Of a stretch of DNA of 64,000 nt, positions 16,249 through 34,158 are shown one piece after another. The position numbers and the translations under genes are program-made. Below the pieces are notes generated by a model, which saw only the letters and a list, made by a program, of their open reading frames with translations, searched no databases and was not told the origin of the DNA. Position 1 is the stretch's first letter. The number at the start of each line of letters is the position of its first letter. Source of the DNA: Candidatus Omnitrophota bacterium (GTDB lineage Bacteria; Omnitrophota; Gorgyraeia; Zapsychrales; Zapsychraceae); the NCBI GenBank assembly GCA_029261065.1, contig JAJDCB010000024.1, positions 102,364-166,363 on the forward strand, read 5' to 3'.

Positions 16249-16265
16249 AACTATGCTCCATTTTT

Positions 16266-16916: not shown

Positions 16917-16943
16917 AGGTTCCTATTTTTGTTAGTAGCTCAA

Positions 16944-17351
16944 TTACACTAATTGAATATCTGATTCATTAAGCCTTGAATTTCTCAATTTTATTATTTC
17001 AATTATCTGTTTAAACATCTCCATATGAAAGGGTTTAAATATAAAATCTAGAGCCCCACTGCTTAATACTTCTTTAACTTGTGATTCTGTTGCATAACCA
17101 GCCATCATAACGGTAGTTAACAATGGATTACGCATGTGTATTGTTTTCATCAATGACATACCATTGATCATAGGAAGTCTCAGCTCTATTAAAACAACTT
17201 GATATTTCTTTTTACTCATTATTAGCATAGCTTCATCAGCATTAGAAGCAAAATCTGCACTAATATTATTAAGATTTAAATAATCAACAACGCACTTTGC
17301 AAATAATACATTGTTATCTACAACTAAAACATTGAAATCATTTGTTTTCAA
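16944..17351 (-). CDS. Atypical receiver-domain protein with Glu in place of the phospho-acceptor Asp
   Basis: Receiver fold positions VLVVDNN ... VVLIELRLPMINGMS ... TTVMMAGYAT ... IFKPF. The position equivalent to CheY Asp57 is Glu (LIELRLP). 4-bp overlap with the downstream gene. Confidence 0.7.
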   Translation of the reverse strand: MKTNDFNVLVVDNNVLFAKCVVDYLNLNNISADFASNADEAMLIMSKKKYQVVLIELRLPMINGMSLMKTIHMRNPLLTTVMMAGYATESQVKEVLSSGALDFIFKPFHMEMFKQIIEIIKLRNSRLNESDIQLV

Positions 17352-17947
17352 ATTCCAGCCCCAAAACCTAGAATGCGTTCACTCCCATCAATTGGCAGTA
17401 AATACATATGACAGTTTAATTCTGTTTCAACAATCTCAAATAAACTTTCTATTAATAAAATTTTATCTTCCTGCAAAGCCATATCCATTATTAACTCAGA
17501 GAAAAGTGTTCCAGAGAAATCACGTATAACAGAAGGTGGCTCAGGTAACATCTTTATCTGAAAGTCTGATGCAAAAACATTAGAGATGGCACTTGATAAT
17601 ATATTACCAATTTCCTGAACAGTACTTGAAACATATTCATCATATGCTTTTGTTGTACCAACCTTTTGTCCTATAAATAGATCTGTTAATATGAAAGCAT
17701 CTTCTAGTTGAACATAAAATAAAAATTTAAAGGGCGCATCGCCCGACAACAAAATAAATGATCCAATGGCCTCGAAGTCAGATTGATTTACGCTAGCCGT
17801 TATCTCTGTAATATCTACAAAATTGACATTCTTTAATTCAATTTTTGCAGTTGTGTTAAGCATCTTAGTCAATACTTCTGAGGATTTTTCAATGCTGTGT
17901 TCAGCGACTAGCTGTACCGCACGATTTACATTTTCATTTGATTCCAT
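17348..17947 (-). CDS. cheC: CheC/CheX-family CheY-P phosphatase (single recognisable active-site motif)
   Basis: S-x3-E-x2-N motif (STVQEIGN) followed by a Pro about 19-20 residues later. 199 aa. Position immediately upstream of cheD as in cheC-cheD operons. First-half motif degenerate. Confidence 0.55.
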   Translation of the reverse strand: MESNENVNRAVQLVAEHSIEKSSEVLTKMLNTTAKIELKNVNFVDITEITASVNQSDFEAIGSFILLSGDAPFKFLFYVQLEDAFILTDLFIGQKVGTTKAYDEYVSSTVQEIGNILSSAISNVFASDFQIKMLPEPPSVIRDFSGTLFSELIMDMALQEDKILLIESLFEIVETELNCHMYLLPIDGSERILGFGAGI

Positions 17948-17951
17948 TTAA

Positions 17952-18437
17952 TTAAAATTCCTCTGGTTCTTCACCAAAAACACGACAATGAACCTTACCA
18001 GTATCCAAAAAAAAATCAACTTGAACACCCTTATCTCCACCCGTTTTTGAGTTTATGATACGAATGTTGTGTTGTTTTAGAATAATTTTTGTAGCATCAA
18101 TGTTTTGTTCACCTATATTACTAGTTACCATCCTCAAAACTTTTCCTCCACCAAAAATCTTTGCCGTCAAAGAGTCTTTAGGGATTGTGTATTGTTTTTT
18201 CATTGATTCTAGTAAATCATGGATGCCTGTATCTGCAAACTTAGCACGTTTAAAAGTGGGTTTTTCATGATGACCGGATGAGTCCGGTAACATTATGTGC
18301 AGCATACCACCAATTTTTTTACTATCATCATATAAACATATGGCTATACACGAACCTAATGTTGTACGAATAACATATGGAGCTTCACCAATTTTATAGT
18401 CTCCTATACCAACGACTAACTTATTATTTTCTGTCAT
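17952..18437 (-). CDS. cheD: Chemoreceptor glutamine deamidase CheD
   Basis: VVGIGDYKIG ... LGSCIAICLYD ... GGMLHIMLPDS; catalytic Cys and His blocks present. 161 aa. Confidence 0.85.
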   Translation of the reverse strand: MTENNKLVVGIGDYKIGEAPYVIRTTLGSCIAICLYDDSKKIGGMLHIMLPDSSGHHEKPTFKRAKFADTGIHDLLESMKKQYTIPKDSLTAKIFGGGKVLRMVTSNIGEQNIDATKIILKQHNIRIINSKTGGDKGVQVDFFLDTGKVHCRVFGEEPEEF

Positions 18438-18490: not shown

Positions 18491-21286
18491 TTAGCGAACA
18501 TTAACTTTTTGCTGCGCTTCACGGATAATTGATGTTGCATCTAAAATAAGAGCTATACTTCCATCTCCTAAAATCGACGCACCACTTATGCCTTGGACAT
18601 CTGAAAAATGGTCCGGCAAAGATTTAATAACAATTTCGTCTTCTCCAATTAACCGATCAACTTCCACTCCAATTGTTTCATCCCCATCTGTAAGAACCAC
18701 GATTTTCCTTGAATTTTTATTTTCATTACTTTTGGTATTCATCCTTAAAATTGTTTCTAGATCAACTAGGCTTAAGGCATGACCTCTTAATTTTACTGTT
18801 GTATTTCCCTCTACTGAGAAAATGGAGTCGTCTTCAACTTTAATAATTTCAGAAACACATTCTAATGGCATAGCAAAAACTTGATTATTGATAACCACTA
18901 AAAGAGCTTGAATAATGGCTAAAGTAAGAGGAATCTTAATGCTAAAATTTGTTCCTCGACCAAGTTCAGTATCGATTTCTACCGTTCCATTTAATTCTTC
19001 AATAGTTCTACGCACAACATCCATACCAACACCACGACCTGAAATACCGGTAATTTGTGCAGCTGTACTAAAACCTGGCATAAATATGATTTGAAATTTT
19101 TCTTTCTCTGTCATTTGATCTAGCTTTTCTTGTGTCAGTATTCCTTTTTCTAAAGCTTTTTCAGATAGTTTGTTTGAGTCCAACCCTTTACCATCATCAT
19201 TAATTTGGATACATATATTATTTCCTTCATAAGATGCTGACAATTTAACTGTTCCCGCTGCTGGTTTATCTGTTAGAGCTCTATCTTCGGTTGTTTCTAT
19301 ACCGTGATCAACAGAATTTCTAATCATATGTGTTAAAGGGTCCCCCAATTCATCAACAATTTTTTTATCAAGCTCTGTTTCTTCACCATAAATCTCTAAA
19401 TTAATATCTTTTTTTAATTCTTTAGCAATATCGCGAACCAACCTTTTAAAACGAGTAAAAACGCCCTCAATAGGAACCATCCTCGTTGACATCACACCTG
19501 ATTGGATGTCGCTTGATAATTTACTCAAAGCGCTGGTCGCCTCATCGAGACTATAAAGTTTTGTGTTAACCTCTTTCATTGAAAGTTTGTTCGATAAATT
19601 AAACATCTCAGATTCCAGTAAGCCAAAAATTTTATTCAATCTATTTGCATTTGCATTCTCATCCCCGAGTGATTGGGATGAATTTTTTCTTAACGCCATC
19701 TTTAATTCAGCAATTTTTCCACCAACTTGACTTAAACGCGTAACATTTTCCTTTGATTGTGAAACTTCATGTTTAACCTCACTAACCAACTGTGCAAATT
19801 TTGCTCTCGTAATTACAAGTTCTCCTGCTAAATTCATAAGGCTATCTAGCCTCCTAGTATCGATACGCATTGTTGTCACTTCAACGCCAGCAGTTTTGGT
19901 TGTTGATGGTGTTTCTTTTTCTTTCATAGCAACCTCTTTTTTTACAGTTTTTGTTGGATTTGCCGTTTTTGTCGTAGGAGCAACTTCTTGAACTAAAGAG
20001 ACTTCTTCTTTTTCAATATTAATTACTTCAATTTGATCAATGCTAATGGCAATATCAATGTCCTTTAACAATTTTGAGGTTGTCAAAATGACACCAACGT
20101 ATACGGCCGTTTCTACATTATCATCGATTAATTCGACATCAGGTTTACAATGAATAATTTCTCCTAGCATGGCTAATTTTTCATTACAAACATTTGCTTT
20201 AATGTTTTTTGTTACACAATTTGCATCAACAGCATAACTGACTCGAAACACATTTAATCCATCTTTTGTTGCATTCTCTTTTAAAGCTGTCAAGTTTTCA
20301 GGCAAATCACTAAATAATTGTGAAACATCAACAGAGTCACCTGTCGTTTCATTAAGAGATTTAGTTGATTTTTCAAGTTTTAATTTATCAATACATTTTT
20401 GAAGCTTTTGAATGACATCAGTATTATTCAAAAGGGCATAGTTTGTTTCGCGAATTTGAGCTGCGGAGTTTTTTATCCAATCAATCCCTATAAATAATGT
20501 AGAAACTATATCCGATTCAGGAACTAGCTTTTCTTCCCTGTATTTTGACAACAAATCTTCCATTTTATGCGCAACAAGTTCAATATCGTTTCTTTTAATT
20601 ATGCCAGATGAGCCTTTGATGGTATGTGAAATTCGAAATAATTCATTAACAGCTTCAATAGGATCAACTTTATTTTCTTCAAGTTGAATCATAACTTCAT
20701 TAAAACGATCAATATTTTGAAATGTATCATCTAAATAAGCTCCCACATATTTTAAAAAATCCTCGCTAGGGGCAGCTACTTCAGTCGCGGCTTCTACAGG
20801 CGGCGTTATTTTTTCTTGAGAAACACCAGCTTCTTCACTTGTCGTTTTAGCAGAATCTGTTTTCCCTGATGTTCCATCTAAAACGGCTTTTATTTCAGTA
20901 ACAACATCAGTGGTGTCCCCTTCATCCGTACCATCCGATTTTAAACGGTCCAATAAAGAACTCAATGTATCAAAAGCGTTGAATAAAACATCTATAATAT
21001 CAATTGTAAGCACAAGTTCACTATTTCGAACACGATCAAGAATGGTTTCCATCTCATGCGTTAATCCTGAAATATTTGAAAAATCAAGAAAACTTGCGGT
21101 GCCCTTAATCGTATGTGCCGCCCGAAACATTGTGTTTATCATATCTACAGAGACTTCTTCATCATTCTTAAGAATTTCTTCAGCTTTAAGAAGATTATCA
21201 TTTAACTCTTGTAGATATTGTTCACTTTCTGAGAGGAATTCAGCAATAATTTCGCTTCTATCATCGTCTATCTCTGAGTCACTCAT
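18491..21286 (-). CDS. cheA: Chemotaxis histidine kinase CheA with two N-terminal Hpt (P1) domains
   Basis: Two H-x-x-K-G phospho-His motifs (AAHTIKGTASFL; ISHTIKGSSGII) separated by a Ser/Thr/Glu-rich linker. HATPase_c blocks (HGIE..., GRGVGMDVVR) and a C-terminal CheW-like P5 domain. 931 aa. Confidence 0.95.
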   Translation of the reverse strand: MSDSEIDDDRSEIIAEFLSESEQYLQELNDNLLKAEEILKNDEEVSVDMINTMFRAAHTIKGTASFLDFSNISGLTHEMETILDRVRNSELVLTIDIIDVLFNAFDTLSSLLDRLKSDGTDEGDTTDVVTEIKAVLDGTSGKTDSAKTTSEEAGVSQEKITPPVEAATEVAAPSEDFLKYVGAYLDDTFQNIDRFNEVMIQLEENKVDPIEAVNELFRISHTIKGSSGIIKRNDIELVAHKMEDLLSKYREEKLVPESDIVSTLFIGIDWIKNSAAQIRETNYALLNNTDVIQKLQKCIDKLKLEKSTKSLNETTGDSVDVSQLFSDLPENLTALKENATKDGLNVFRVSYAVDANCVTKNIKANVCNEKLAMLGEIIHCKPDVELIDDNVETAVYVGVILTTSKLLKDIDIAISIDQIEVINIEKEEVSLVQEVAPTTKTANPTKTVKKEVAMKEKETPSTTKTAGVEVTTMRIDTRRLDSLMNLAGELVITRAKFAQLVSEVKHEVSQSKENVTRLSQVGGKIAELKMALRKNSSQSLGDENANANRLNKIFGLLESEMFNLSNKLSMKEVNTKLYSLDEATSALSKLSSDIQSGVMSTRMVPIEGVFTRFKRLVRDIAKELKKDINLEIYGEETELDKKIVDELGDPLTHMIRNSVDHGIETTEDRALTDKPAAGTVKLSASYEGNNICIQINDDGKGLDSNKLSEKALEKGILTQEKLDQMTEKEKFQIIFMPGFSTAAQITGISGRGVGMDVVRRTIEELNGTVEIDTELGRGTNFSIKIPLTLAIIQALLVVINNQVFAMPLECVSEIIKVEDDSIFSVEGNTTVKLRGHALSLVDLETILRMNTKSNENKNSRKIVVLTDGDETIGVEVDRLIGEDEIVIKSLPDHFSDVQGISGASILGDGSIALILDATSIIREAQQKVNVR

Positions 21287-21307: not shown

Positions 21308-22357
21308 TTAGTTTAGGTTACAGATTTTTGAGATGGCTTTACTAAAATTTTGAATATCTAATTCTAAATCAACAGCACCAGCGTTGTTAGCAGCTTTTGG
21401 CATTCCGTAAACAACACAGCTTTCTTCATCTTGCCCAAGAACATAGGCACCTTTTTCATGTAATTTGACCAGCCCTTTTGTTCCATCATCACCCATACCT
21501 GTTAATATCAATCCTAATATACTCCCTTTAAAATTTTCACTTACAGAGTCAAATAGCACATTACACGATGGACAAAAACCAGAAACTTTTTCTTCTCCAG
21601 CTAAAGATAAATAAGGACCCGTGGAACCAGATTTAAGTCTCATTTGAACTCCTCCACGCGCTAGATAACACCAACCTTTTTTTATTTTGTCTCCCTCTTC
21701 TGCTTCTTTGACATTAATTTTTGATAATTTGTCTAATCTTTCAGCAAAACTTTTTGTAAATTTTTCAGGCATATGTTGAACCCAAACGATCGGAGGACAT
21801 TCTTCTGCTAAATGTGGTAAAAATGCAGTTGATGCCTGAACCCCTCCTGTTGACGATCCTAGTGCAATTAGATCAATTTTTCTCTTAGGTAGTACGCTTA
21901 AATCAAATATCTTCTTTTTCGTTATGTTGCCATCTGGTGCTGTTTTATTAATAAGCTTAAACTTATTACGTAAAATAATACCCTCTATTTTACGAACAAG
22001 AGTATGAATTATCTCATCAATGCCTAAGGCATCCGATGCTGGTTTGACAAGATAATCAACAGCCCCATATTCTAAGGCTTTAATAGTTACTCTAGAGCCT
22101 TCATTCGTCAAAGAACTAAACATAAAAACAGGTAGTGGACAATCCTTCATGATACATCTCAAGGCTTCAAGACCATTCATGACAGGCATTTCGCAATCTA
22201 ATATTAACAAATCAGGCTTTTTTAATTTAACTAAATCAATAGCTTCTTTGCCATTTTTGGCCTGACCAACAACCGAAACTTTTCCTGTAGCTTCTAATTT
22301 TTCTTTTAAAACACTTCTTAAAAAAGCAGAATCATCTGCTAAAAGTACATTAGTCAT
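21308..22357 (-). CDS. cheB: Chemotaxis methylesterase/deamidase CheB (receiver plus methylesterase)
   Basis: N-terminal REC (VLLADDSAFLR ... LLILDCEMPVMNG). C-terminal catalytic triad blocks GSSTGG, VQHMP, GMGDDG. Confidence 0.95.
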   Translation of the reverse strand: MTNVLLADDSAFLRSVLKEKLEATGKVSVVGQAKNGKEAIDLVKLKKPDLLILDCEMPVMNGLEALRCIMKDCPLPVFMFSSLTNEGSRVTIKALEYGAVDYLVKPASDALGIDEIIHTLVRKIEGIILRNKFKLINKTAPDGNITKKKIFDLSVLPKRKIDLIALGSSTGGVQASTAFLPHLAEECPPIVWVQHMPEKFTKSFAERLDKLSKINVKEAEEGDKIKKGWCYLARGGVQMRLKSGSTGPYLSLAGEEKVSGFCPSCNVLFDSVSENFKGSILGLILTGMGDDGTKGLVKLHEKGAYVLGQDEESCVVYGMPKAANNAGAVDLELDIQNFSKAISKICNLN

Positions 22358-22363
22358 ACAATA

Positions 22364-23179
22364 TTAAGTTGATTTCTGAAACATACTCGAACGAATGAGT
22401 GTAAAATTTGAATTTATATCATTGATAGTTTCCGACAAACTTATAAACAAATAACCGTTCGATGCAACATTTTTTTCAACATTTGAAACAATTTCTTGTT
22501 TTGCTGGTTGATCGAAATAGATAAGAACATTTCTCATAAATATAATATCAAATTCTTTTTCAGAAAAGGCCTTTTTTAAATTGTGATTTGAAAATTGAAC
22601 CTTATTTTTTATAGAGTCAATAACTTTATATTCTGGTTTCGAGCCTTTAGATGCTTCTTCAATAGTAAAATATTTTGACACAAGAGAGTCCGGTGTTTGT
22701 CTTAAGCTTCTTTCATCATAGACGGCATTTCTAGCAAAGCTAACAACAGACGTATTGATATCTGAGGCAAAAATAGAATAGGTTATGCGTGAATTTTTTT
22801 TTGTAAATTCTTTTAAAAGAATAGAAAGGGAATAGGGCTCTTCGCCTGTCGAACAGGCAGCACACCAAATTTTAATTTTTGACTTTTTTTCAGCAAGAGT
22901 AGGAAGAACGACATCATACAAATAATTCATTTGAACAGAATGTCTAAAAAAATATGTTTCATTTGTCGTTATAGCATTTATAAATTCTTCAGTTTCTTCA
23001 CTATTAGGTTTCTTAACAACATCAATATACTCAGCAAAATCTTTTAAACTTAGTTCATTAACACGTTTGCCTATACGAGCACTCACCAAATGCTTTTTTG
23101 AGTCTCGTAACATGACCCCTGTTTTTTGATACATCAAATCTCGAATTTTTTTAAAATCAATATCTGAAATATCTTCCAT
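22364..23179 (-). CDS. cheR: Chemotaxis protein methyltransferase CheR
   Basis: CheR N-terminal helical domain plus SAM-MTase core (IWCAACSTGEEPYSL). 271 aa. Confidence 0.9.
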   Translation of the reverse strand: MEDISDIDFKKIRDLMYQKTGVMLRDSKKHLVSARIGKRVNELSLKDFAEYIDVVKKPNSEETEEFINAITTNETYFFRHSVQMNYLYDVVLPTLAEKKSKIKIWCAACSTGEEPYSLSILLKEFTKKNSRITYSIFASDINTSVVSFARNAVYDERSLRQTPDSLVSKYFTIEEASKGSKPEYKVIDSIKNKVQFSNHNLKKAFSEKEFDIIFMRNVLIYFDQPAKQEIVSNVEKNVASNGYLFISLSETINDINSNFTLIRSSMFQKST

Positions 23180-23184
23180 TGGTT

Positions 23185-23697
23185 TTATTTAGTATTACCT
23201 ACTCCTATTTCTCTAATGACATCTTCTTGTAACTTGCCTAAATCAATAATTGTCACCATTCTCCCTTCAAGTTCGCCAATACCAACAACGCAATCTTTAT
23301 CAATATTTGAGGCAACAGATGGGGCTGGGTCTATTTTTGATTTTGACAATTTAATGTTTTCTAATATTTCATCAACAATAAAACTAAAAGAAACACTACC
23401 GACCTCAGCGACAACAATTTTTGTTTTTTCACTAAAGGCAACATCCGCCAAATTAAACTTAATTCTTAAATCAAAAACACTGATTACGCTACCTCGAATA
23501 TTTATAACGCCTAAGACAAACTTAGGCATTTGAGGAATGTGCGTAATCATTTGAACACGATTGACTTCTTGAATATCAATAATCCTAACGGCATATTCTT
23601 CGTTTGCAAGTTTAAAACAAACGAATTGCTCCACATCATCAGAATCTTCCACATTTTGAATGTCTAACATATTGTCAACTGTTAAGTCTTCTACCAT
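23185..23697 (-). CDS. cheW: Chemotaxis coupling protein CheW
   Basis: 170-aa CheW-like domain (FVCFKLANEEYAVRIIDIQEV...VINIRGSVISVFDLR). Confidence 0.9.
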   Translation of the reverse strand: MVEDLTVDNMLDIQNVEDSDDVEQFVCFKLANEEYAVRIIDIQEVNRVQMITHIPQMPKFVLGVINIRGSVISVFDLRIKFNLADVAFSEKTKIVVAEVGSVSFSFIVDEILENIKLSKSKIDPAPSVASNIDKDCVVGIGELEGRMVTIIDLGKLQEDVIREIGVGNTK

Positions 23698-23721: not shown

Positions 23722-25980
23722 TTAACCAAAACTTAATTTTTCTTCATCATTATTATCTTTGGCTCTTGCTTTAGTTTGTGTGTTTCCTTTTTTAGCAGTA
23801 ATTGTTACAGGTTTTGAAGGCAGCTCTGTTGTATCGTTAGATTTTGTTTGAGTGGACTCTCTAGATTCTCCACCATCTTCCGATACACGAAACCGACCAA
23901 CAAGGTCAATAAGTGTTGCCGATTGTGCTGCCATTTGTTCTGAAGAGGATGCCAATGACTCAGAAGCGGTAGCATTCCCCTCGGTAATGGCTGTATTTTC
24001 TTCCATGGTAGCTGCTTGTTCAGATGTTGCATTAGAAATACTTTTTAACTGCTCTGCAACACTAGTAATATCCACAAGCATTTCTTTTAAACTATCACCA
24101 GCTTCTTTGGATAGATTAACACCTTGTTCAACTTGGTTAGAACTCTCAACGATAAGATTCTTAATATCTTTAGCAGACTCAGCACTTCTTTCTGCTAACT
24201 TTCTTACCTCATCAGCAACCACAGCAAAGCCCTTACCATGCTCACCAGCCCGAGCAGCTTCAATGGCCGCATTTAAAGCAAGTAAATTTGTTTGATCTGC
24301 AATGTCTGTTATTATTTCTACGGCTTCCGTTATCTGCTTTGAGCTTTTTTCTATTGAGCCTATAGCTTCAATAGTATTATCCATACCTTCAGCCGTTTTT
24401 TCCGCTTTCTTGGACACACTTTGAGCCGAATCATCAGCAGATGATGCACTGGTTGAGTTAGATTGGACTGAACTTGATAATTCTTCAAAACTTGCAGATT
24501 GCTGTTGCGCACCATCTGAAATTTTACTAGCACTTGTAGCAATCTCGTCAGTTCCTAAATTTAATTGTTGAGATGAAGATTTCACTTGTATTATGATATC
24601 TTCAATTTTAGTTACAAATTTGTTAAAATTATTAGCCAAGTCTCCTAATTCATCTTTATTCGCTATCTGTATTCTTTTTGTTAAATCCCCTTCGCCTTCT
24701 GCAATATCCTGCATATTTTTATTTATATAATTAATTGGTTGCGTAATCGATTTACTAACAAAAATACCTGTTACAGCAACAATACCAGCAATGATAAGTG
24801 CGACAAGAAGAACTTGCCAGGTTAAACTTTTTATAGGCGCCATAATTTCACTTAATTCAACCTCGGAAATTAAAAACCAATCTAGCCCTTCAATATCTAT
24901 TGTTGAATATGAAGATACAACTTTTTTTCCTTTATAATTTACATCTTCTATTGTACCGGTTTCTCCAGCCACAGCATTTTTACTAGACTCATTTTCAACC
25001 TTAATTTTTTGAATGGTTGATTCTTCTGAAAATCTGGAATCCGATTTAAAAAATTTATCAGAACCAATTATGAAACTTTCACCTGTTTCACCCATACCAG
25101 AGTGCTCTTGAACTACTTCATTAATCCCATCAACAGGCATTTGAAAAACTAAAGCTCCTAGTAGCGTGTCTCCATCATATATTGGTGAAGCTGTAAAAGA
25201 GGCGGGTGCATTGTAAGAGGGCTCATAAAAATCAAAATCGACAATATTAACAAAATCTTTTTGTCCACTTAACAACGCCTCTTTCGCCGCTCTTGCAAAA
25301 TTTGTATTGCTATATGGTCCATTAAACAATGAAGTTGCATAATCAACTTCCTTAAAAACAGAATATACAATGGCCCCATTTACAGGTTCAACCAAAAAGA
25401 TATCGTAATAACCAAATTCTTGCAAATAAGAACGAATTATAGCGTGATATTGTTCATGCAATTTAGAATATATTGTACTATCATTGGCTTTTTCTAAGGC
25501 TTCTTTGGCACCAATAGGATGTGAATTATTTGCAATGTAGTGATATTGCAAGACTTTTGCTGCAACTGTTTTTGGCATCCAACGATCAACAGCACTGGTG
25601 TCTGAACCATCTGTGTTAGCCTGTTGATATGTATATCGGTCTCTTAGTTTCCCATCGATCGTAGATTTATTTTCCTTATAAAAGTCACCTTCTGAATCTT
25701 CAATTTTTGAATAAGCATACGAAAATTGTTTCATTGCCTGAACTATCATACCATTCTGTGAAAAAGTTTTTACCTGGCCCTTATATGAAGCCATATTATC
25801 TTCCAAAGATTTTTTCTTAATGGCACTAACAGCTTCTAATTTTTTTTGTAAAACGTCCGAAGTCATTTTTGAAGCCGATTTAATACTTAAAATTGAAACA
25901 ATTAGCAAAGGAATCAAACCCAATGCCATAAAAAAGAAAATCAATTTTGTTTTAATTTTGAATTTTTTAAAAATGTTCAT
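23722..25980 (-). CDS. mcp: Methyl-accepting chemotaxis protein with about 350-aa periplasmic double-Cache-like sensor, HAMP and MCP signalling domains; Ser/Thr-rich C-terminal tail
   Basis: TM1 [21 protein letters not shown] and TM2 [19 protein letters not shown]. Highly conserved hairpin tip region ...[35 protein letters not shown].... No C-terminal NWETF-like pentapeptide. Confidence 0.95.
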
Positions 25981-26379
25981 TTAAGAACCTCCAATTGTGT
26001 TTGTAGATTTAATATATTTTGTAAGCGTCCATTGATCAGTATCATCAATGCCGTCAAAGGAAACAGCAACGTCATATAAATTGCCTGGTTGCTCCTTTTG
26101 GCAACGTTTAACACAAGCAATTAATTCTAAAGGCTTTTCATAAGAAAGCTCCTCGGGTTTATAAAAAGTAGAGCTATATTTTTTAAAATGTGGTATATAA
26201 ATTTTTAAATTCAAAATTTCTTTTTTAGAATAGCTTTTTTTTGAATAAAACAAAAGACCACCAACACTAATATTTTTTGTCTTAGAATTTTCTTGAGTGC
26301 TAAAATTATTTCGCCTTTGACAATCTAAGGAAAAATGTTTATTCAATCGGCTGTATTTTCTTTTCTCACTTATAGACAT
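25981..26379 (-). CDS. Single-domain PilZ (c-di-GMP-binding) protein embedded in the che operon
   Basis: Canonical PilZ motifs RxxxR (RKYSR) and D/NxSxGG (NISVGG). 132 aa. 10-nt overlap with cheV upstream and abuts the MCP gene downstream. Confidence 0.75.
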   Translation of the reverse strand: MSISEKRKYSRLNKHFSLDCQRRNNFSTQENSKTKNISVGGLLFYSKKSYSKKEILNLKIYIPHFKKYSSTFYKPEELSYEKPLELIACVKRCQKEQPGNLYDVAVSFDGIDDTDQWTLTKYIKSTNTIGGS

Positions 26380-27296
26380 AATTTATCAACAGTTTCAACA
26401 AGCAAATCGATTTCTGGTTTTGTTAATTGCCCATTAGCACCAACTTTTCTACACTTATCGGCCAACTCATCCGTTATCATAGAAGAAAAGACAACGCACG
26501 GTAAATCCTTTAAGTCTTTCTCTGCGCGAACCTTACTAATTAAATGCAATCCATCCATCTGCGGCATTTCTATATCTGTAATAAGTAAATTGCAAAAATC
26601 ACTTACATCTTTAAAACCTTCTGATTTTACCTCGTCTTGAAAGGCATTCCATGCCTTTTCACCATCTGTAAAAGCCTTAACTTTGTATCCAGCTGTTGAA
26701 ACATAATCAACCAATAATTGACGTATATATGCAGAATCTTCTGCTATAAAAATTTGTTTAGTTGATCTATCGACTTGATTTGTTGATTTTGGCTTAGCAT
26801 CGGCAACGCCTTCTAATCCAGCTTCGGGATTGATGATAGAAGCAATTTTTTCAAAATCTAGCAGAAATAGTATTCGATCTTCTATTTTGATAACTCCAAC
26901 AGCATATCCCATTTTAGAATTAACTAATCCCGACGGGGCACCAACATCCTTCCAAGAAATACGATGAATGCGGGTTACTTCATTAACCCAAAAACCTGCT
27001 TGAAGTTTATTGAATTCAGTAACAATAATACGACTGGCTTTTGGGTCGTAATCAACATCAATTTTTAATTGTTTAGCAAGTGTAACAACAGGCGTAATTC
27101 TACCACGTAAATTAACGACGCCAGCTACGGATTCATGAGAATCAGGAACAGGAACAATACCAATATTTGCCCGAATAATCTCTCTTACCTTGGCAACATT
27201 AATTCCATAATATTCATTTCCGATTTTAAACTCAATAATTTCTAACTCATTCGTTCCTGCCTCTAACAGAATTTGCTGCTTATTATTTTCGCTCAT
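26370..27296 (-). CDS. cheV: Chemotaxis protein CheV (CheW-like domain plus C-terminal receiver)
   Basis: N-terminal CheW-like (LEIIEFKIGNEYYGINVAKVREI). C-terminal REC (IFIAEDSAYIRQ ... LLITDIEMPQMDG ... VVFSS ... LTKPE). Confidence 0.9.
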   Translation of the reverse strand: MSENNKQQILLEAGTNELEIIEFKIGNEYYGINVAKVREIIRANIGIVPVPDSHESVAGVVNLRGRITPVVTLAKQLKIDVDYDPKASRIIVTEFNKLQAGFWVNEVTRIHRISWKDVGAPSGLVNSKMGYAVGVIKIEDRILFLLDFEKIASIINPEAGLEGVADAKPKSTNQVDRSTKQIFIAEDSAYIRQLLVDYVSTAGYKVKAFTDGEKAWNAFQDEVKSEGFKDVSDFCNLLITDIEMPQMDGLHLISKVRAEKDLKDLPCVVFSSMITDELADKCRKVGANGQLTKPEIDLLVETVDKLCL

Positions 27297-27417
27297 TTTA
27301 TGATCCTTATTTACTATTTGATTATGTTATTAATATAATCTACTGTTGATGTAAGTCAATAAAAAAGCAATATTTTTCACATCTTATACAAAACAACTAG
27401 GGAACCAATAGGTGGTG

Positions 27418-27771
27418 CTATAACGAATCTAAAATTTTTTTTGCTATCTCAACTGTTATTGGTTTTTTAATTAAAGAGATTGCGCCATTATCCTGTAATA
27501 TTTTCTCTCTCTCGTCGGTAGCTTCTACAGTAGTTACGATTAATTTTTGGTTTGGAAATTTAGCTTTAATATTTTTTAAAATTGTCAATCCATCTTCTGC
27601 GCCTAAATTATCATCAAGGATAATCAAATCAAAATTTTCTTGTTTATCTAATAAAGCATAAAGCCCGTCAGGATCTAATGTTGTTTTGACATCAGCACCA
27701 CACTCTAAAAAAAGATTTTTATGCTTGTTTAGTGCGAACTCGCCATTATCCAATAAACAAATTTTTGCCAA
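27418..27771 (-). CDS. Single-domain receiver protein
   Basis: ICLLDNGEF ... LIILDDNLGAEDG ... LIVTTVEA ... LIKKPI. Confidence 0.75.
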   Translation of the reverse strand: MAKICLLDNGEFALNKHKNLFLECGADVKTTLDPDGLYALLDKQENFDLIILDDNLGAEDGLTILKNIKAKFPNQKLIVTTVEATDEREKILQDNGAISLIKKPITVEIAKKILDSL

Positions 27772-27786
27772 TTTGATATCCTTTTT

Positions 27787-28143
27787 TTAAGCTATCTTTG
27801 ATTTAAAATCCAAATATGCACTTTTTAACTGTGGGCAGAGTTTACTTATTTCTGCAATATCACTTTCCGCTTTTGAAAGTTCATCAATACTAGCAGCAAT
27901 TTTTGAAACATGATCTATTCTTAAATTTGCATACACACCCTTTATTCTGTGCGCTATCGCTTGTATATCTTCATGATTTTGTTGTTCAATTCCTTTTTCT
28001 AAAGCTATTAAGTCAGTATCACATTGCGTAAATGAAGAAATTAATATACTCTTATAAACATCTACAGGAATACTTAACTCACCACTTTTTTCTTTAAGAA
28101 AACTATCTAGATCAAAGTCATTGTTTTCATTTTCATTTGACAT
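27787..28143 (-). CDS. Stand-alone histidine phosphotransfer (Hpt) protein
   Basis: Hpt H-x-x-K-G motif (IAHRIKGVYANL) in a 118-aa all-helical protein. Confidence 0.7.
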   Translation of the reverse strand: MSNENENNDFDLDSFLKEKSGELSIPVDVYKSILISSFTQCDTDLIALEKGIEQQNHEDIQAIAHRIKGVYANLRIDHVSKIAASIDELSKAESDIAEISKLCPQLKSAYLDFKSKIA

Positions 28144-28340: not shown

Positions 28341-30014
28341 TTAAGCTTCAAAGGTCTTGATTTTTTTCATCGCATCGTCTAATTTTTTTGCCGCATCCTT
28401 AGCAGATACAGTTACAATCTTCAATGTGATTTTAGACTCTTTTTTTTCTTCCTCTTCATTATTTGCTTTTTGAGCAACAGAATCATTGACTGTTTTTAAC
28501 TCATCTAATCTATTAACTTCATTACTCTTATCTTCTAAACTTGTATCATTAGAATCAGATTTTTCTGGTTGAGCAGCTTCTACTGCTTTATTTAAGGCTT
28601 CAAGAGGGTCTCTATCCTCATCGCTCTTATTTAAAGGTTCATCATCAGATTTTGTTTTTGATTCATCAAGCGCGTTTTGAAGTGCTGTTAAAGGATCAGA
28701 TTTTTCTTCTTTAGAGTCTTCAGTAGAATTACCAGGTGCCTTATTGGAATCATTAACAGCATTTTGAAGCATCGCTAAAGGATCTGCATTAGCTTCCTTC
28801 GCTTGTACACTCTTTTCGTCAGTTGGAGCAATTTTACTCAAAGCATCTAGCGCTTGTAACTTAGAGTCATTGACTGGTGTTTGGGCTGCAGAACCTTCAC
28901 TACTTTCCATAACTTTGTAAGTAAATATTATTAGAAATTGAAAATCCTCACATTTAAAATTCATTTCTAAATTGGATGTTTTTTCGGTATCACCAGAAAA
29001 TTCTAGATCAACGCCCATTACAGTAGATGGAATACTTATGTCAAAACCATAAGCTCCTTCAGCCCCCCCTAATTTCGTTTTAGCACCTCCGGCAATCATA
29101 TTAATTAATTCACCAACTCCATCCGTAACATCGGAATCAACTTCCTCAATGTCCATATATAACATTTTTGAAACAATGAGGCACGCTGCTTTTGAAGATA
29201 AACAAGCAGCGATATTTCCTTCAACCTTACCAGTCACACCAATAGAACTGACAATCCCTTCATCAGCAGAAGGCAGTATTTTCTCGTCAGTTTCTTCGAC
29301 ACTCAAAGTAAGCGTGGCTGAAAATGTATCAACGACAGCTTCTCTTAAAGCGTCTTTTAATGCCTCTTGAATTTCCATATCAGAAAATTTCCTTTCACTA
29401 GATACATTTTGATTATTGCTGATAATTGGCGTATCAACAATATTTTTTTCATCTTTTTTCAATTCAAGAGAAGAGCTATCCCCTGAAGCATCCAAAGCCG
29501 TTAATTTGTCTAATGCAGAAGTGGACGCTTCATCAACTTTAGCTGTATTTAGTTTATAATCTAAAATAGCAAGTATTTCTATATTATCTACTTTGTACTT
29601 TTTTAATATTTCGATTGTTTTGCCTTGACTATTTGACTTAACAATTTTTTTACCTCGAACGGTAGTTGGAATACTAATATCAAAAGGATGTTCTTTATCT
29701 GGTCCACCGATCCGATTTTTCATCCCACCAGCAATCATGTTAAGCAACTCGCCTATACCGTCTTTGACATCACTGTTAAGTTCCTCAATTTCCATATACA
29801 ACATTTTAGACACAATCTCACAGGCAATTTTTTCTGACATATAAATAGAAACAGTGCCTTCAAGAGATCCCGCTATTCCAATAGAACATATAAGGCTCTC
29901 CTCTACAGGTGAGATTGTGTCATCTAGGACTTCGGCTGATAACGCCATAGTTGTTTGAAAGACATCCAGAACAGATTCATTCAAAGTTACAATTAAATCA
30001 TCATGATAGGACAT
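28341..30014 (-). CDS. Tandem CheX-domain protein (two CheC/CheX-type phosphatase domains) with a long acidic C-terminal tail carrying repeated DPLxALQNA motifs
   Basis: Two D-x3-E-x2-N motifs each followed by Pro about 23 residues later (DGIGELLN...P and DGVGELIN...P) within two clearly paralogous ~150-aa halves. Tail has DPLAMLQNAV, DPLTALQNAL, DPLEALNKAV. Confidence 0.75.
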   Translation of the reverse strand: MSYHDDLIVTLNESVLDVFQTTMALSAEVLDDTISPVEESLICSIGIAGSLEGTVSIYMSEKIACEIVSKMLYMEIEELNSDVKDGIGELLNMIAGGMKNRIGGPDKEHPFDISIPTTVRGKKIVKSNSQGKTIEILKKYKVDNIEILAILDYKLNTAKVDEASTSALDKLTALDASGDSSSLELKKDEKNIVDTPIISNNQNVSSERKFSDMEIQEALKDALREAVVDTFSATLTLSVEETDEKILPSADEGIVSSIGVTGKVEGNIAACLSSKAACLIVSKMLYMDIEEVDSDVTDGVGELINMIAGGAKTKLGGAEGAYGFDISIPSTVMGVDLEFSGDTEKTSNLEMNFKCEDFQFLIIFTYKVMESSEGSAAQTPVNDSKLQALDALSKIAPTDEKSVQAKEANADPLAMLQNAVNDSNKAPGNSTEDSKEEKSDPLTALQNALDESKTKSDDEPLNKSDEDRDPLEALNKAVEAAQPEKSDSNDTSLEDKSNEVNRLDELKTVNDSVAQKANNEEEEKKESKITLKIVTVSAKDAAKKLDDAMKKIKTFEA

Positions 30015-30030
30015 AGCCTATATCCTTATG

Positions 30031-30420
30031 TTAACCCGCTGCGTTTAAAATTGGATCAATAGCTGCTTTTAATTGATCTGGTGTAAAGGGTTTTGGTATA
30101 TAACCAGCCAAATTTGGATTAGCTGCTTTTGCCTCTGCAATTTTATCATCTGTTCCCTCAGTTGTAACCATAATGACAGGTATTTCGGCAACGGCAGGCA
30201 CTTTAGCCACAGCACCGACAAATTCAATACCAGACATATTAGGCATGTTCCAATCGCACAAAACTAGGGCAACATCTTGGAAATTACCTGCTAAGGTTTC
30301 TATACCTACCGCCCCATCAGGTGCTTCTAAGATTTCATTTTCAAACCCAGCTTTTTTAATAATTTGAACAATCATTTTTCTTTGGACTCCTGAATCATCA
30401 ATAACTAGAATTTTTTTCAT
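30031..30420 (-). CDS. cheY: Chemotaxis response regulator CheY (second copy)
   Basis: ILVIDDSGVQRKMI ... LVLCDWNMPNMSG ... VIMVTT ... YIPKPF. Confidence 0.85.
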   Translation of the reverse strand: MKKILVIDDSGVQRKMIVQIIKKAGFENEILEAPDGAVGIETLAGNFQDVALVLCDWNMPNMSGIEFVGAVAKVPAVAEIPVIMVTTEGTDDKIAEAKAANPNLAGYIPKPFTPDQLKAAIDPILNAAG

Positions 30421-30458: not shown

Positions 30459-31040
30459 TTAGCTCTTAATTTTGTCTATCGGTAACAAAACAAAATCAAC
30501 AACTAAAACCTTCTTTTTCTTTATGAAGAAACTCATTTCTGTTAACTTTTCTTCATTATAATTAAATTCCACACCCTCAGGCACATCATTTCTATATTTT
30601 AAAGGGGCAGAAATAATTAACTCACCATAACCTTCATTTTTGATATCATTTTTAGTTTTTCCAGAAATAACATTATGAATTTCACCGCAATTATCCATAA
30701 CAAACTCTTCATCTTCATCATCAAACCCAGTTTGCCCCAAGGCTTTTAATAGCTCCCGAGCATAAACCTCTTCTACATAAAAAACCATAGTTCCACAGGT
30801 ATCTTTACTGTCAAATTTTGATTTATCAGCATAAAAATTAATAACTGAAATAAAACAGGGTCCATTAAATTTCTGAAGACCAAAAACTCTCATGCGGCTT
30901 TCATATTCAATGATATCTTTTTCCTCAAATTCAGGATCCTGGGAGAAAATAGCGCTAGCCATTGTTTCGCAGGTTTCTTCAACGGCTTTCATAACAATTT
31001 TAATTATTGGGTCATTTTGAATAACATCTTCTTCACTCAT
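30459..31040 (-). CDS. cheX: CheX-type CheY-P phosphatase
   Basis: Exact CheC/CheX/FliY consensus D-x3-E-x2-N-x22-P present once: DNCGEIHN followed by 22 residues then P. 193 aa. Confidence 0.7.
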   Translation of the reverse strand: MSEEDVIQNDPIIKIVMKAVEETCETMASAIFSQDPEFEEKDIIEYESRMRVFGLQKFNGPCFISVINFYADKSKFDSKDTCGTMVFYVEEVYARELLKALGQTGFDDEDEEFVMDNCGEIHNVISGKTKNDIKNEGYGELIISAPLKYRNDVPEGVEFNYNEEKLTEMSFFIKKKKVLVVDFVLLPIDKIKS

Positions 31041-31064: not shown

Positions 31065-32933
31065 TTAATCATTCAAAACATTACTTACATCGAAACGTAA
31101 ATTATCTCTTAAAGTGTTTCTCTTAGTCTCAACAGCTTCTTCTTCCTCTTGGCTTGATTCAAACGTTTCAATATCTGATTGCGTTGATAAAAGATTATCA
31201 AAATATTTATCCATTTGCGTATTAAGCAATCTTTCTACTTTTTCACCTCTTAAAACTTCATCTTTTTTAGTTTTTTGAATTTCCCCTTTGTTGATATTTG
31301 CAAAATCAAATGCCAATTTGTTTAGTACAAAGATAGAATCTTTAAGGTAATGAGAAATTTTCATACTATTATTAAAGTTGACAACATCTTTCGAAGGATC
31401 TGTGGCATTTTGCTTTAATTTATCTAAAACATTATTAAGTTGATCAATTTGTTTTAAATTTCTCAAATATATCTCTTCGATAAACTGAAAATTATTTTGC
31501 GACCTCTCTACATATTGTGACAAATCCTGCAAATTATTTAATGATGAACTTTTGTAATGGTTAAAGTGCTTTACCCCTTTTAATATTCCCTCATTTGTCA
31601 TATTAACGGCTTTAGTCATTTTCTGAGAGAGAATAAGCAAGTCTTTTACGTCCGAGGTAGAGTCAGTACCTTTTTTTGCTTTGGTCCGTTTAGGAGCTTG
31701 TTTATCTTTTCTTTCAATTTTTCTAATAATTTTCTCAATCTGTTTTGAAACGCCTTGCATGGTCTGCGTTAAATCATTTAAGTTATTGGAATGAGCATAA
31801 TAACCAACGATGCTCTTATTGACATCTTGAACTTGTTGGTGTTGATCTTTTATTATCTGTTTATTCTTTTGATATTGAATGTAGACCTCTTTAATCTTAG
31901 TTTGATTCCCCTCCATTTGTGCTGTCAATTTTGTAATTTCGTTCTCAACGTTTTTTGTTAAAACATTTCTATCGTGATAGGATGTTAATGCCATGTAAAA
32001 AGACTCGATAAATTCTTTAACATATTGCGTTAATCTTCTCGTTTCACCCTGTAATTCCGTTGTTGATTCTTTATAACTGCCTAAAATGTTGCGTACATAG
32101 TAAGCAATGAGTAGCAAGAATATAAAAATTGATCCAAGAATTAATATTTGAAATGTTTTGCTTCCGTTATTTTTTAATACTGTAGAATAGACTTTAGCAT
32201 CATAATTTTGTCGATTTTTGCTATCTAATCGTCTTAACCCTAAATGCAAACTTAAAAATGTAGTCTCGAGAATCTTTTTAGAATTATTTATTGACCTTTC
32301 ATATTCACTATTTAATTTTGTGGCATAAACCTCAAGCTTGTCTAACCTGTCTATAAGTTCAAGTTTTATAGCTCCGATCTCTTCTATTCCGTTTACGGCA
32401 TTAACAACTAGAGAAAGTTCATTTAACGCATACCCCAACAAACGATCTTTTTGGGCCAAACTTTCGTTTTGTTCAACAAATAAATTCACAGCATCTAACA
32501 TCTTTTGTGTTTCCCCACCTTCACCTTCTGGATTAGGAAACTTTAGATTAAGTTGATTGATTTGAAACTCTAAAACTGCTTTTCTTTTATTATCGAGATA
32601 ACCAATATTTCTTATCTCACTTTTTATTTTTAATAATTTCTTTGAGTCAATTTCAGGAAAGCCGTTGAGATGAGAAATCAAAAGATTAATTTTTTTATCA
32701 ATTACTTTTTCGTGAGACCCAGAGTGAGGAGAATTTTCAAATACCTGATCTGTTAGGGATTGGACACCATTTAATTGCTGAGTTGAGAAATCTAATCGTG
32801 CTCGAATACGATCAAATTTTTGATGGCTTGAGTTTAATTCGATGAGTGATTGAGGACGTGTCAACATGTACGTGACACCAATCATAAATATAAATACAAA
32901 ATATAGTAAAAATCGAAGAATAGTTTTATTCAT
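31065..32933 (-). CDS. Two-TM membrane protein with about 225-aa periplasmic helical region and about 350-aa cytoplasmic coiled coil; no recognisable MCP signalling, HAMP or kinase motifs
   Basis: TM1 ILRFLLYFVFIFMIGVTYML, TM2 FQILILGSIFIFLLLIAYYV. Cytoplasmic part is heptad-rich with an acidic C-terminus. Sits inside the che supra-locus. Confidence 0.6.
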   Translation of the reverse strand: MNKTILRFLLYFVFIFMIGVTYMLTRPQSLIELNSSHQKFDRIRARLDFSTQQLNGVQSLTDQVFENSPHSGSHEKVIDKKINLLISHLNGFPEIDSKKLLKIKSEIRNIGYLDNKRKAVLEFQINQLNLKFPNPEGEGGETQKMLDAVNLFVEQNESLAQKDRLLGYALNELSLVVNAVNGIEEIGAIKLELIDRLDKLEVYATKLNSEYERSINNSKKILETTFLSLHLGLRRLDSKNRQNYDAKVYSTVLKNNGSKTFQILILGSIFIFLLLIAYYVRNILGSYKESTTELQGETRRLTQYVKEFIESFYMALTSYHDRNVLTKNVENEITKLTAQMEGNQTKIKEVYIQYQKNKQIIKDQHQQVQDVNKSIVGYYAHSNNLNDLTQTMQGVSKQIEKIIRKIERKDKQAPKRTKAKKGTDSTSDVKDLLILSQKMTKAVNMTNEGILKGVKHFNHYKSSSLNNLQDLSQYVERSQNNFQFIEEIYLRNLKQIDQLNNVLDKLKQNATDPSKDVVNFNNSMKISHYLKDSIFVLNKLAFDFANINKGEIQKTKKDEVLRGEKVERLLNTQMDKYFDNLLSTQSDIETFESSQEEEEAVETKRNTLRDNLRFDVSNVLND

Positions 32934-33077: not shown

Positions 33078-33485
33078 TTAGACGAATCGAAAATCAGACA
33101 TTTTACTTTTTGCTTCAAGAATAACATTAACAATGTCTGCTCTACTAACAATACCAACTAATTTCCCATCCTTCGTAATCGGAACACGACGAATATGATT
33201 TCTTATAAAAAACTTACAAATATCAATGGCATCATCATTTTCGTTAAAAGAGATAACATCTACAGTCATGTAATCTTCTACGTTGTTTTTAATATCGAGA
33301 TTTTTGTCGAGTAAAATACGTAACACATCTTTTTCTGTAAGAATACCTACAATAGATTCATGTTCGTCAACCACGGGTAAACCGCTGACTTTATTTTTAG
33401 AAAGCAAATCTAGAGCCTCATAAATCGGTGTTTTTGCTGATACCGTGTGGATATTTGTACTCATGATAGACTGAATTGAAAGCAT
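33078..33485 (-). CDS. CBS-domain pair protein
   Basis: Two CBS motifs (VSGLPVVDEHESIVGILTEKDVLR; IRRVPITKDGKLVGIVSRADIV). Strong SD AAAGGAGG about 7 nt upstream of the ATG. Confidence 0.85.
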   Translation of the reverse strand: MLSIQSIMSTNIHTVSAKTPIYEALDLLSKNKVSGLPVVDEHESIVGILTEKDVLRILLDKNLDIKNNVEDYMTVDVISFNENDDAIDICKFFIRNHIRRVPITKDGKLVGIVSRADIVNVILEAKSKMSDFRFV

Positions 33486-33684: not shown

Positions 33685-34158
33685 CTAATATAACAATTTT
33701 TCGATGGCAGAAAGCAATTCTGGCGTCTGAAACGGCTTTTTCATATAAAAATCAACCCCCGCATCCATCGCCTTTTCCTTCGATTCATCGTCCACCGAAC
33801 CTGTAAGCATTATGACCGGAATTAAAGGTTCCTTAAATTGATCCTTGATTCTAGCTGTTAACGCGGATCCATCCATATCTAATAATTGTCCATCTGTAAT
33901 CACCAAATCAGGCTTATTCATTTGCAGGACATCAAGTGCCTCTTGGCCAGACAAGGCCGTTAAAACTTCAAAATTTTTTGATCGAAGGATGTATGCCAAT
34001 AATTTAATAAGATCTGGGGCATCATCGATAATGAGAATTTGAAAAGATTGTTTCTTCACAACTTCACTAACTTTTTGTAGAAGGCAATAAAAAGAAGAAT
34101 GTTGAACCTTTACCAAGTTCTGACTCAACCCACATTTTGCCACCATGACGTTCAACAA
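33685..34158 (-). CDS. Receiver-domain response regulator. Real start probably GTG at 34059 (about 124 aa) rather than the track start, which overlaps the kinase gene by 92 nt.
   Basis: ILIIDDAPDLIKLL ... LVITDGQLLDMDG ... VIMLTG ... YMKKPF. In-frame GTG 7 nt after the kinase stop codon gives MKKQSFQILIIDD. Confidence 0.8.
   Translation of the reverse strand: MLNVMVAKCGLSQNLVKVQHSSFYCLLQKVSEVVKKQSFQILIIDDAPDLIKLLAYILRSKNFEVLTALSGQEALDVLQMNKPDLVITDGQLLDMDGSALTARIKDQFKEPLIPVIMLTGSVDDESKEKAMDAGVDFYMKKPFQTPELLSAIEKLLY

Follow-up and report, generated by a model that had tools for sequence, protein, structure and literature searches.

A single-domain PilZ protein of an Omnitrophota chemotaxis gene cluster: a probable c-di-GMP-responsive adaptor of the chemosensory array

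Introduction

To our knowledge, cross-talk between cyclic di-GMP (c-di-GMP) and chemotaxis is known from few mechanisms, nearly all of them in Proteobacteria. These include the action of MapZ on CheR1, PilZ domains fused to receptors, YcgR and MotI at the motor, the Cle proteins, and PlzC, which acts via CheX. As a concept, a PilZ adaptor that couples c-di-GMP to chemotaxis is already known. In this study, we analysed a stretch of 64,000 nucleotides (nt) from a Candidatus Omnitrophota bacterium (assembly GCA_029261065.1, contig JAJDCB010000024.1, positions 102,364 to 166,363), hereafter the window, which contains a chemotaxis (che) gene cluster. Within this cluster, pilZ, a gene for a single-domain PilZ protein of 132 amino acids (aa), lies between cheV and the gene of a methyl-accepting chemotaxis protein (MCP).

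MapZ of Pseudomonas aeruginosa binds CheR1 via its helices α1 (residues 92–106) and α2 (residues 109–121), with R99 being essential (bioRxiv 10.1101/2020.02.11.943704). The same report, a sequence-network study of PilZ proteins, describes the MapZ cluster (cluster 2 of the single-domain network) as proteobacterial, describes a HapZ cluster and gives no characterisation of most of the others. HapZ (PA2799 of P. aeruginosa), when loaded with c-di-GMP, binds the receiver domain of SagS and modulates phosphotransfer (bioRxiv 10.1101/2020.02.11.943704). Finally, three reports describe PilZ-containing chemoreceptors, namely Tlp1 and Aer of Azospirillum brasilense and Cbp1 of Azorhizobium (PMC3604760, PMC6406031, PMC6454048).

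The window PilZ differs from MapZ and from the PilZ-containing receptors. We consider it probable that it is a c-di-GMP-responsive adaptor of the chemosensory array and that it represents a lineage-specific subfamily built into the che gene cluster. The family, the insertion that marks it, the strict residence of its genes in che clusters by cheV and an MCP gene, and its taxonomic home are new. Below, we describe the protein, its family and its gene context, and weigh other targets through which it might act.

Results

The window encodes a canonical PilZ domain

The pilZ gene (25981..26379; ATG start) and all che genes of the window described below lie on the minus strand. Its product matches the Pfam PilZ domain (PF07238) over residues 5–123, with an E-value of 1e-7 and 32.7 bits against a gathering cutoff of 22.5. 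Translation and family alignments located both c-di-GMP-binding motifs: the RxxxR motif, R7-K-Y-S-R11 (26347..26361), and the [D/N]hSxxG motif, N36-I-S-V-G-G41 (26257..26274), as defined for canonical PilZ domains by Galperin and Chou (bioRxiv 10.1101/814665). Thus the original prediction, made from the sequence alone, had correctly recognized a 132-aa PilZ protein with RKYSR and NISVGG motifs. The open reading frame (ORF) is a real gene and not a chance ORF, as it has homologues with E-values down to 5e-17 and the AlphaFold2 model of its product, computed on an alignment of relatives (alignment A3), has a mean predicted local distance difference test (pLDDT) score of 90.2. The predicted template modelling (pTM) score of this model was 0.81.

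According to the AlphaFold2 model, the protein folds as a six-stranded barrel followed by one C-terminal helix. This single α-helix spans residues 113–130 (25990..26043), as located by the predicted secondary structure and by alignment, and has the family consensus GIDEGHQxALxKYI. A conserved phenylalanine, F108 of the segment AVSFDGID, ends the last strand (residues 101–108). As modelled, the fold, the two motifs and the last-strand phenylalanine agree with canonical c-di-GMP-binding PilZ domains as defined in the literature (bioRxiv 10.1101/814665).

From these features, we infer that the window PilZ is highly likely to bind c-di-GMP. It is extremely unlikely that the PilZ fold has been kept as an array accessory, a degenerate scaffold that no longer senses the nucleotide. 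Such a scaffold would have precedent in the non-binding PilZ proteins that exist (bioRxiv 10.1101/814665, 10.1101/2020.02.11.943704), and it would suit both the variant second motif, such as NIGAGG, seen in ∼14% of the family and the lack of c-di-GMP turnover genes in the window. However, the window protein retains both motifs intact. Moreover, in an alignment of 51 members sharing 27–38% identity, R7, R11 and G41 are invariant, which is hard to explain without ligand binding; S38 and L119 are nearly invariant in the same alignment.

The window PilZ belongs to a distinct subfamily

An exhaustive phmmer search with the window protein against 1.84 billion representative proteins (representatives at 50% identity) returned 117 proteins at E ≤ 1e-3, the best with an E-value of 5e-17. 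Nearly all of these family representatives are 127–150 aa long and align end to end with the query at 26–41% identity. Among the 115 proteins of family size, 112 carry RxxxR and 99 carry [DN]xSxxG. By contrast with this exhaustive search, a word-indexed homologue search with the window PilZ matched only the protein itself.

In family alignments of 39 to 51 members (A2 and A3), R7, R11 and G41 are invariant, and a family-specific insertion lies between the strands at residues 55–61 and 84–96. The insertion has the consensus IPGWEKYKxEFYKPxxLSxxxPL, in which the G, W and F are invariant in an 18-sequence core set. In the window (26131..26196), it reads IPHFKKYSSTFYKPEELSYEKPL. Its length and position fit the family, and the K-Y, F-Y-K-P, L-S and P-L elements are kept, with H-F in place of the invariant G-W. 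In the model, it forms short helical turns at residues 65–68 and 75–77, and the block has pLDDT values of 71–91. We regard the insertion as a candidate partner-binding surface.

On a hidden Markov model (HMM) of the family, the window protein scored 149 bits, within the range of 101–191 bits of the members. By alignment and profile score, it is a member of a distinct single-domain subfamily of ∼130–145-aa proteins encoded in che clusters, which we call PGWEKY after the insertion. This subfamily was delimited in the present analysis and is not a curated family; no NCBIfam model specific to it was found. In databases, its members are named 'PilZ domain-containing protein [Candidatus Omnitrophica/Omnitrophota]', apart from one automatic 'YcgR' label, and all members with an organism name derive from metagenome-assembled genomes (MAGs) of Omnitrophota. 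A literature search found no description of a single-domain PilZ family encoded in che operons.

The original prediction also listed a second single-domain PilZ protein in the window, and this gene is real: the 131-aa product of 43239–43634 (minus strand) matches PF07238 with an E-value of 6e-6 and carries RATIR and DMSLSG. It is a generic PilZ protein and no paralogue of the che-cluster family, scoring 30.6 bits on the family HMM. The protein ends in a strongly basic, Lys/Arg-rich tail, and its gene sits between pntB and a hypothetical gene, without a link to che genes.

pilZ is coupled to cheV and an MCP gene

Upstream of pilZ lies cheV (26370..27296), which encodes CheW and receiver domains (Pfam CheW, 4.4e-31; Response_reg, 1.9e-18). 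The 3′ end of cheV overlaps the start of pilZ by 10 nt. Immediately downstream is an MCP gene (23722..25980), whose product has HAMP and MCP signalling domains (Pfam MCPsignal, 6.2e-44; HAMP, 7.9e-13). The ATG of this gene (25980) directly follows the TAA stop codon of pilZ (25981–25983), leaving a spacer of 0 nt. Reading of the sequence places a GGAGG Shine-Dalgarno element for the MCP gene within the last pilZ codons (25988..25992), 7 nt before the ATG, and this position suggests that pilZ and mcp are translationally coupled.

After the MCP gene come cheW, cheR, cheB and cheA, likewise on the minus strand and preceded by gaps of 24, 5, 6 and 21 nt, so that no gap from cheV to cheA exceeds 24 nt. 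The coordinates bear out the 10-nt overlap with cheV and the abutting MCP gene noted in the original prediction. Its further claim that pilZ shares an operon with cheR, cheB and the MCP gene is supported by the coupling of the reading frames to their neighbours and by the short gaps.

A consensus scan of the 121-nt gap 5′ of cheV found a sigma-70-like match, TTGACT-16-TATATT (27332..27359; 10 of 12 positions). It is a possible internal promoter for cheV, pilZ, mcp and later genes; the signal is weak, as the number of such sites in the region is not above that in shuffled sequences. The only terminator-like hairpins on the minus strand were at 25350–25331, 22340–22325 and 22079–22061. All three lie within the ORFs of the MCP and cheB, outside the spacers, and such hairpins were no more numerous than in shuffled sequence; the scan has no statistical power. 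As neither signal is enriched over shuffles, the scan does not define the limits of the operon.

Family genes reside in che clusters throughout

We gathered related loci by a CheV-seeded genome scan, by exact-protein look-ups and by a metagenome scan with tight alignment, and annotated them by phmmer searches in which the Che domains of the window served as queries. The family gene is surrounded by a che cluster in each of the 30 distinct loci, a count that includes the window. Most often, the order is cheV-pilZ-MCP-cheW-cheR-cheB-cheA. The direct upstream neighbour of pilZ is CheV in 15 loci, a receiver (REC) domain only in six (three of these cut by a contig end), CheW in four, and MCP, CheX and CheA in one each; two loci begin at a contig end. 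In most loci, then, pilZ is directly preceded by sequence coding for a receiver domain, in cheV or in a stand-alone REC gene. Directly downstream lies an MCP gene in 11 loci, and in four more after one intervening ORF; the remaining downstream neighbours are CheW (five), REC only (three) and CheR (two), with five contig ends. In three loci (L001, L084 and L088), the cheV and pilZ frames overlap by 4 nt.

The CheV-seeded scan returned mostly Firmicutes loci, and the family PilZ occurred only with the two closest CheVs (L001 and L002). There, pilZ directly follows cheV and precedes an MCP gene. One of these loci is from an Omnitrophota MAG (62% identity) and the other from a MAG labelled Planctomycetales (55%). 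No family member was found in 78 other cheV loci, totalling ∼1.4 Mb.

The placement of the family gene in a che cluster in all 30 loci makes a functional link between c-di-GMP and the chemosensory system very likely, and we judge it likely that the window PilZ itself acts on the chemosensory pathway. Here, the original prediction, which had proposed a coupling of c-di-GMP to adaptation, holds in part: synteny strongly supports a dedicated c-di-GMP input into the pathway, but not the MapZ mode via CheR. Judged by gene order and the apparent translational coupling, CheR is a less likely target than CheV or the receptor array. We name either of the latter as the directly bound partner only tentatively.

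Some loci depart from the commonest order. In an Omnitrophica MAG (L081; GCA_015233115.1), two family paralogues (6974–7414 and 7900–8352) flank cheW in the order CheX-PilZ-CheW-PilZ-CheV-CheR-CheB, and this cluster lies directly downstream of two MshEN-T2SSE ATPase genes and a T2SSF gene. An alternative conserved context, cheA-cheD-cheC-REC-pilZ-REC-(REC-histidine kinase), was found in L082 (7001–9788), L086 (2948–5036) and L089 (263–3167). In L082 and L089, it is followed by a second, non-family PilZ gene and a CBS protein gene. The corresponding stretch of the window, cheC-REC-(REC-HisKA)-REC (15886–17947), is without a PilZ gene.

The adjacent MCP carries a conserved C-terminal tail

After a Lys-rich linker, the MCP encoded downstream of pilZ ends in EEKLSFG (23725..23745). 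We searched for this tail with the regular expression [DE]E[KS]L[RKS][IFL]G in every ORF of ≥150 aa from 109 loci. The motif was found only in MCPs, one per cluster, of nine PilZ-bearing loci as well as of the window; elsewhere than in the window, it reads EEKLRIG, DEKLRIG or EESLRIG. The MCPs in question are encoded at 9117–10874 in L001, 9213–10937 in L002, 12090–14129 in L084, 4001–5722 in L088, 7363–9453 in L093, 2392–3024 in L094, 4113–5897 in L103, 251–1927 in L106 and 8955–10631 in L109. No match occurred in the 78 cheV loci that are without PilZ. The motif is also absent from several PilZ-bearing loci (L081, L082, L087, L095, L096, L101, L104 and L105). The tail is a candidate tether or docking peptide, with CheR, CheB and the PilZ protein as candidate binding partners.

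The window PilZ is not a MapZ-family member

In the original prediction, MapZ served as the model: the window PilZ would bind CheR and throttle receptor methylation. We compared the family with MapZ, whose sequence was checked against PDB entry 5XLY. An hhalign comparison aligned only 48 N-terminal ligand-binding columns, with a probability of 21.6%. In structural alignments, the identity to MapZ was 9–10%, and the C-terminal region did not align with MapZ and was misplaced by MAFFT. Among solved PilZ domains, MotI gave the best structural match to the model and MapZ the weakest. A profile search of the PDB matched solely MotI/YpfA, with MapZ absent at E ≤ 1; the corresponding sequence search with the single protein gave chance matches only.

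We rejected membership in, or orthology to, the MapZ family, as the alignment is limited to the ligand motifs, the protein has one C-terminal helix as opposed to two, and MapZ is the weakest structural match. The insertion, missing in MapZ, and the rarity of cheR as a direct neighbour argue in the same direction. A MapZ-like mode of action, in which the c-di-GMP-loaded PilZ would bind CheR, encoded three genes downstream, inhibit receptor methylation and slow adaptation, is a separate matter. We rate it as unlikely. The gene does share an operon with cheR and cheB, and cheR is its direct downstream neighbour in L096 and L101. MapZ itself provides the precedent of a single-domain PilZ protein that inhibits CheR1. 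Furthermore, some Omnitrophota proteins fuse ComFB, a cyclic-dinucleotide receptor domain, to CheR, so that control of CheR by dinucleotides is present in the phylum (PMC12448109). However, those two loci are the only ones of the 30 with cheR adjacent, what aligns with MapZ is the ligand-binding part, the profile search did not retrieve MapZ, and the MapZ cluster has been described as proteobacterial. The window protein also ends two residues after its single C-terminal helix, as opposed to the α1 and α2 helices of MapZ. Overall, the proposed analogy with MapZ is not supported, and CheR is a possible but not a favoured target.

Other possible targets

The PilZ domain is structurally close to the MotI/YcgR type. 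As in MotI and YcgR, PilZ with c-di-GMP might act at the output, on a flagellar stator or rotor, or on a PilB-like type IV pilus ATPase, with the gene residing in the che cluster for co-expression only. A PilB-like ATPase with a receiver domain is encoded ∼10 kb upstream (35901–38645), and similar ATPases occur near the clusters of L081, L095 and L109. Nevertheless, such a brake or clutch is quite improbable. The likeness to MotI is limited to the generic PilZ barrel, and the window protein is single-domain, lacking the PilZN/YcgR domain that MotI and YcgR have at the N-terminus. Moreover, family genes keep to the core of the cluster (cheV, cheW and MCP) rather than to output genes, and no flagellar, motor or stator genes were found in the 64-kb window.

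PlzC is a two-domain YcgR-like protein, which sets it apart from the window PilZ. In Vibrio cholerae, PlzC controls motility via CheX (PMC12799141). By analogy, the window PilZ might modulate a CheY-P phosphatase of the CheX or CheC type and so change the lifetime of CheY-P rather than array activity. The cluster encodes three CheX-domain units, two in 28341–30014 and one in 30459–31040, in addition to CheC, and one PilZ gene of L081 directly follows a CheX gene. However, CheX is a direct neighbour in that one locus of the 30. The report on PlzC also keeps its c-di-GMP-dependent biofilm role apart from its CheX-dependent control of motility, so the effect on CheX may not depend on c-di-GMP (PMC12799141). 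We consider a phosphatase target very improbable.

A split PilZ–MCP fusion was also rejected. In known fusions, PilZ is at the C-terminus of the receptor, whereas the window pilZ is upstream of the MCP gene, and no fused relative was found among 1.8 billion representative proteins.

The che cluster and the rest of the window

As transcribed, the order of the cluster on the minus strand is CheX-like, cheY, CheX-CheX, Hpt, REC, cheV, pilZ, mcp, cheW, cheR, cheB, cheA, cheD, cheC, REC, REC-HisKA and REC. Upstream of cheV, Pfam matches identified the CheX-like gene (30459–31040), which is the first of the cluster, cheY (30031–30420), a gene for a 557-aa CheX-CheX protein (28341–30014), an Hpt gene (27787–28143) and a REC gene (27418–27771). 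Downstream of the MCP gene, they identified cheW (23185–23697), cheR (22364–23179), cheB (21308–22357), cheA with two Hpt domains (18491–21286), cheD (17952–18437), cheC (17348–17947), REC (16944–17351), REC-HisKA (16266–16916) and REC (15886–16248). The CheX-CheX protein contains long acidic, Ser/Lys-rich low-complexity segments between and after its two CheX phosphatase domains. At the matching position, related clusters encode single-domain CheX proteins of ∼190 aa (2681–3244 in L001; 1259–1834 in L002).

Directly upstream of the CheX-like gene is a gene for a 622-aa, coiled-coil-like protein with an N-terminal membrane segment (31065–32933, minus strand), for which no Pfam or NCBIfam match was found. 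Then follows a group of genes directly upstream of the che cluster, comprising a CBS protein (33078–33485), a REC protein (33685–34158), a PAS histidine kinase (34067–35893) and the PilB/GspE-like ATPase. The latter (914 aa, minus strand) combines MshEN and T2SSE domains, an acidic low-complexity linker and a C-terminal receiver domain, and scores 615 bits on the NCBIfam PilB model, slightly below the cutoff. Similar ATPases in the three related clusters named above are of the T2SSE or T2SSE-REC type. These ATPases hint at a machine of the type IV pilus kind as a possible output of the chemosensory system. The N-terminal region of the window ATPase was considered as a second c-di-GMP sensor. 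The MshEN-type c-di-GMP motif is RLGxxLLxxG; by eye, its Arg and Gly positions are missing, so the ATPase is probably not a second sensor.

A few kb past the end of the che cluster, a 379-aa protein (11926–13065, minus strand) has two PilJ N-terminal sensor domains and no MCP signalling domain; its gene adjoins that of a stand-alone receiver (11495–11905, minus strand). At the other end of the window, an ORF of at least 3526 aa (53387–63967, minus strand) fills the last 10.6 kb and has weak coiled-coil/filament-type Pfam matches only. Very large ORFs are reported to be typical of Omnitrophota genomes. The citrate synthase encoded in the window has its best named matches, at 69–79% identity, only among Omnitrophota MAGs, which by itself would place the window very probably in this phylum.

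Discussion

The adaptor mechanism that we favour is set out here; in it, we infer both which protein is the partner and which way the effect goes. Through translational coupling, PilZ would be made stoichiometrically with CheV and the receptor. As c-di-GMP rises, the RxxxR loop and the [D/N]hSxxG strand would together bind the nucleotide, which would span both. In this loaded form, the adaptor would then dock on a core component of the array, via the PGWEKYKxEFYK insertion, the C-terminal helix or both, and alter kinase coupling or adaptation. The likeliest partner would be CheV, bound at its receiver domain, in the manner of HapZ, or at its CheW-like domain, with the adjacent receptor as the second candidate. 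Binding to CheV could change either receptor–kinase coupling or CheV-mediated adaptation. As an outcome, the c-di-GMP state of the cell would bias chemosensory output.

Several observations weigh against such an adaptor. The direct neighbour of pilZ varies among CheV, CheW, REC, CheX, CheA, MCP and CheR; as it is not constant, gene order singles out no one partner. The phmmer matches from the 1.84 billion representatives included no fusion of the family to any che domain, the longer matches being PilZ-PilZ tandems or a TPR false positive. The best structural match, MotI, is a motor clutch and not an array-binding protein. The window protein is itself a divergent member, its insertion reading PH-FKKYSSTFYKPEELSYEKPL, with G→H and W→F relative to the hallmark. 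No GGDEF, EAL or HD-GYP gene was found in the 64-kb window. Finally, the source organism is an uncultured MAG.

A more far-reaching proposal is that the family constitutes a new class of array-intrinsic accessory chemotaxis protein, with a status like that of CheV, CheC, CheD and CheX. The loaded adaptor would dock on CheV, on the MCP tail [DE]E[KS]LR[IFL]G or on both, and c-di-GMP would gate kinase coupling or the access of adaptation enzymes directly at the array, which is not how MapZ, YcgR and PilZ-fused receptors work. We regard this proposal as doubtful at present.

In many uncultured lineages, of which the named members are Omnitrophota, the che operon itself encodes a PilZ family of its own. 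This suggests that chemosensory arrays can include an input for a second messenger among their standard, stoichiometric components. Should CheV or the tail of the receptor turn out to be the partner, chemotaxis systems would gain a new class of accessory protein with this family, and CheV would be regulated by more than phosphorylation. As the proteins are small and soluble and their candidate partners are encoded alongside, the hypothesis is testable in vitro despite the organisms being uncultured.

Compared with known systems, the window PilZ resembles MapZ (PA4608) in its general type: both are single-domain canonical PilZ proteins of ∼125–130 aa with RxxxR and [D/N]hSxxG motifs, and in both c-di-GMP is linked to a chemosensory pathway, for the window PilZ presumptively. 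They differ in the conserved 20-residue insertion of the window family, which MapZ lacks, and in the C-terminus, which has one helix in the window PilZ and two in MapZ. The window gene also lies inside the che operon, beside cheV and an MCP gene, and the named members of its family are from Omnitrophota, in contrast to the proteobacterial MapZ cluster. The comparison with HapZ concerns function: HapZ is a stand-alone PilZ adaptor, and the window family gene mostly follows a receiver-domain coding region. The target of HapZ is, however, a hybrid histidine kinase and not a chemotaxis protein, and REC binding by the window family is a supposition.

MotI/DgrA (YpfA) of Bacillus subtilis and YcgR/FlgZ differ in having two domains (PilZN and PilZ) and in acting on the motor. 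The window PilZ does not share this architecture, as its 132 aa, with PilZ over residues 5–123, leave no room for a second domain, and it is encoded in the receptor-array part of the che cluster. In the PilZ-containing chemoreceptors, c-di-GMP sensing by PilZ is physically joined to the receptor. There, PilZ forms the MCP's C-terminal domain, whereas the window PilZ is a protein of its own, whose gene lies upstream of the MCP gene and is joined to it in expression only. PlzC resembles the proposed adaptor in being a PilZ protein that tunes chemotactic behaviour via an accessory che protein; the report on it attributes its c-di-GMP binding to the biofilm role, apart from the CheX-dependent role in motility (PMC12799141). 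Finally, the MCP tail [DE]E[KS]L[RKS][IFL]G resembles a tether peptide such as NWETF and, unlike NWETF, is non-aromatic.

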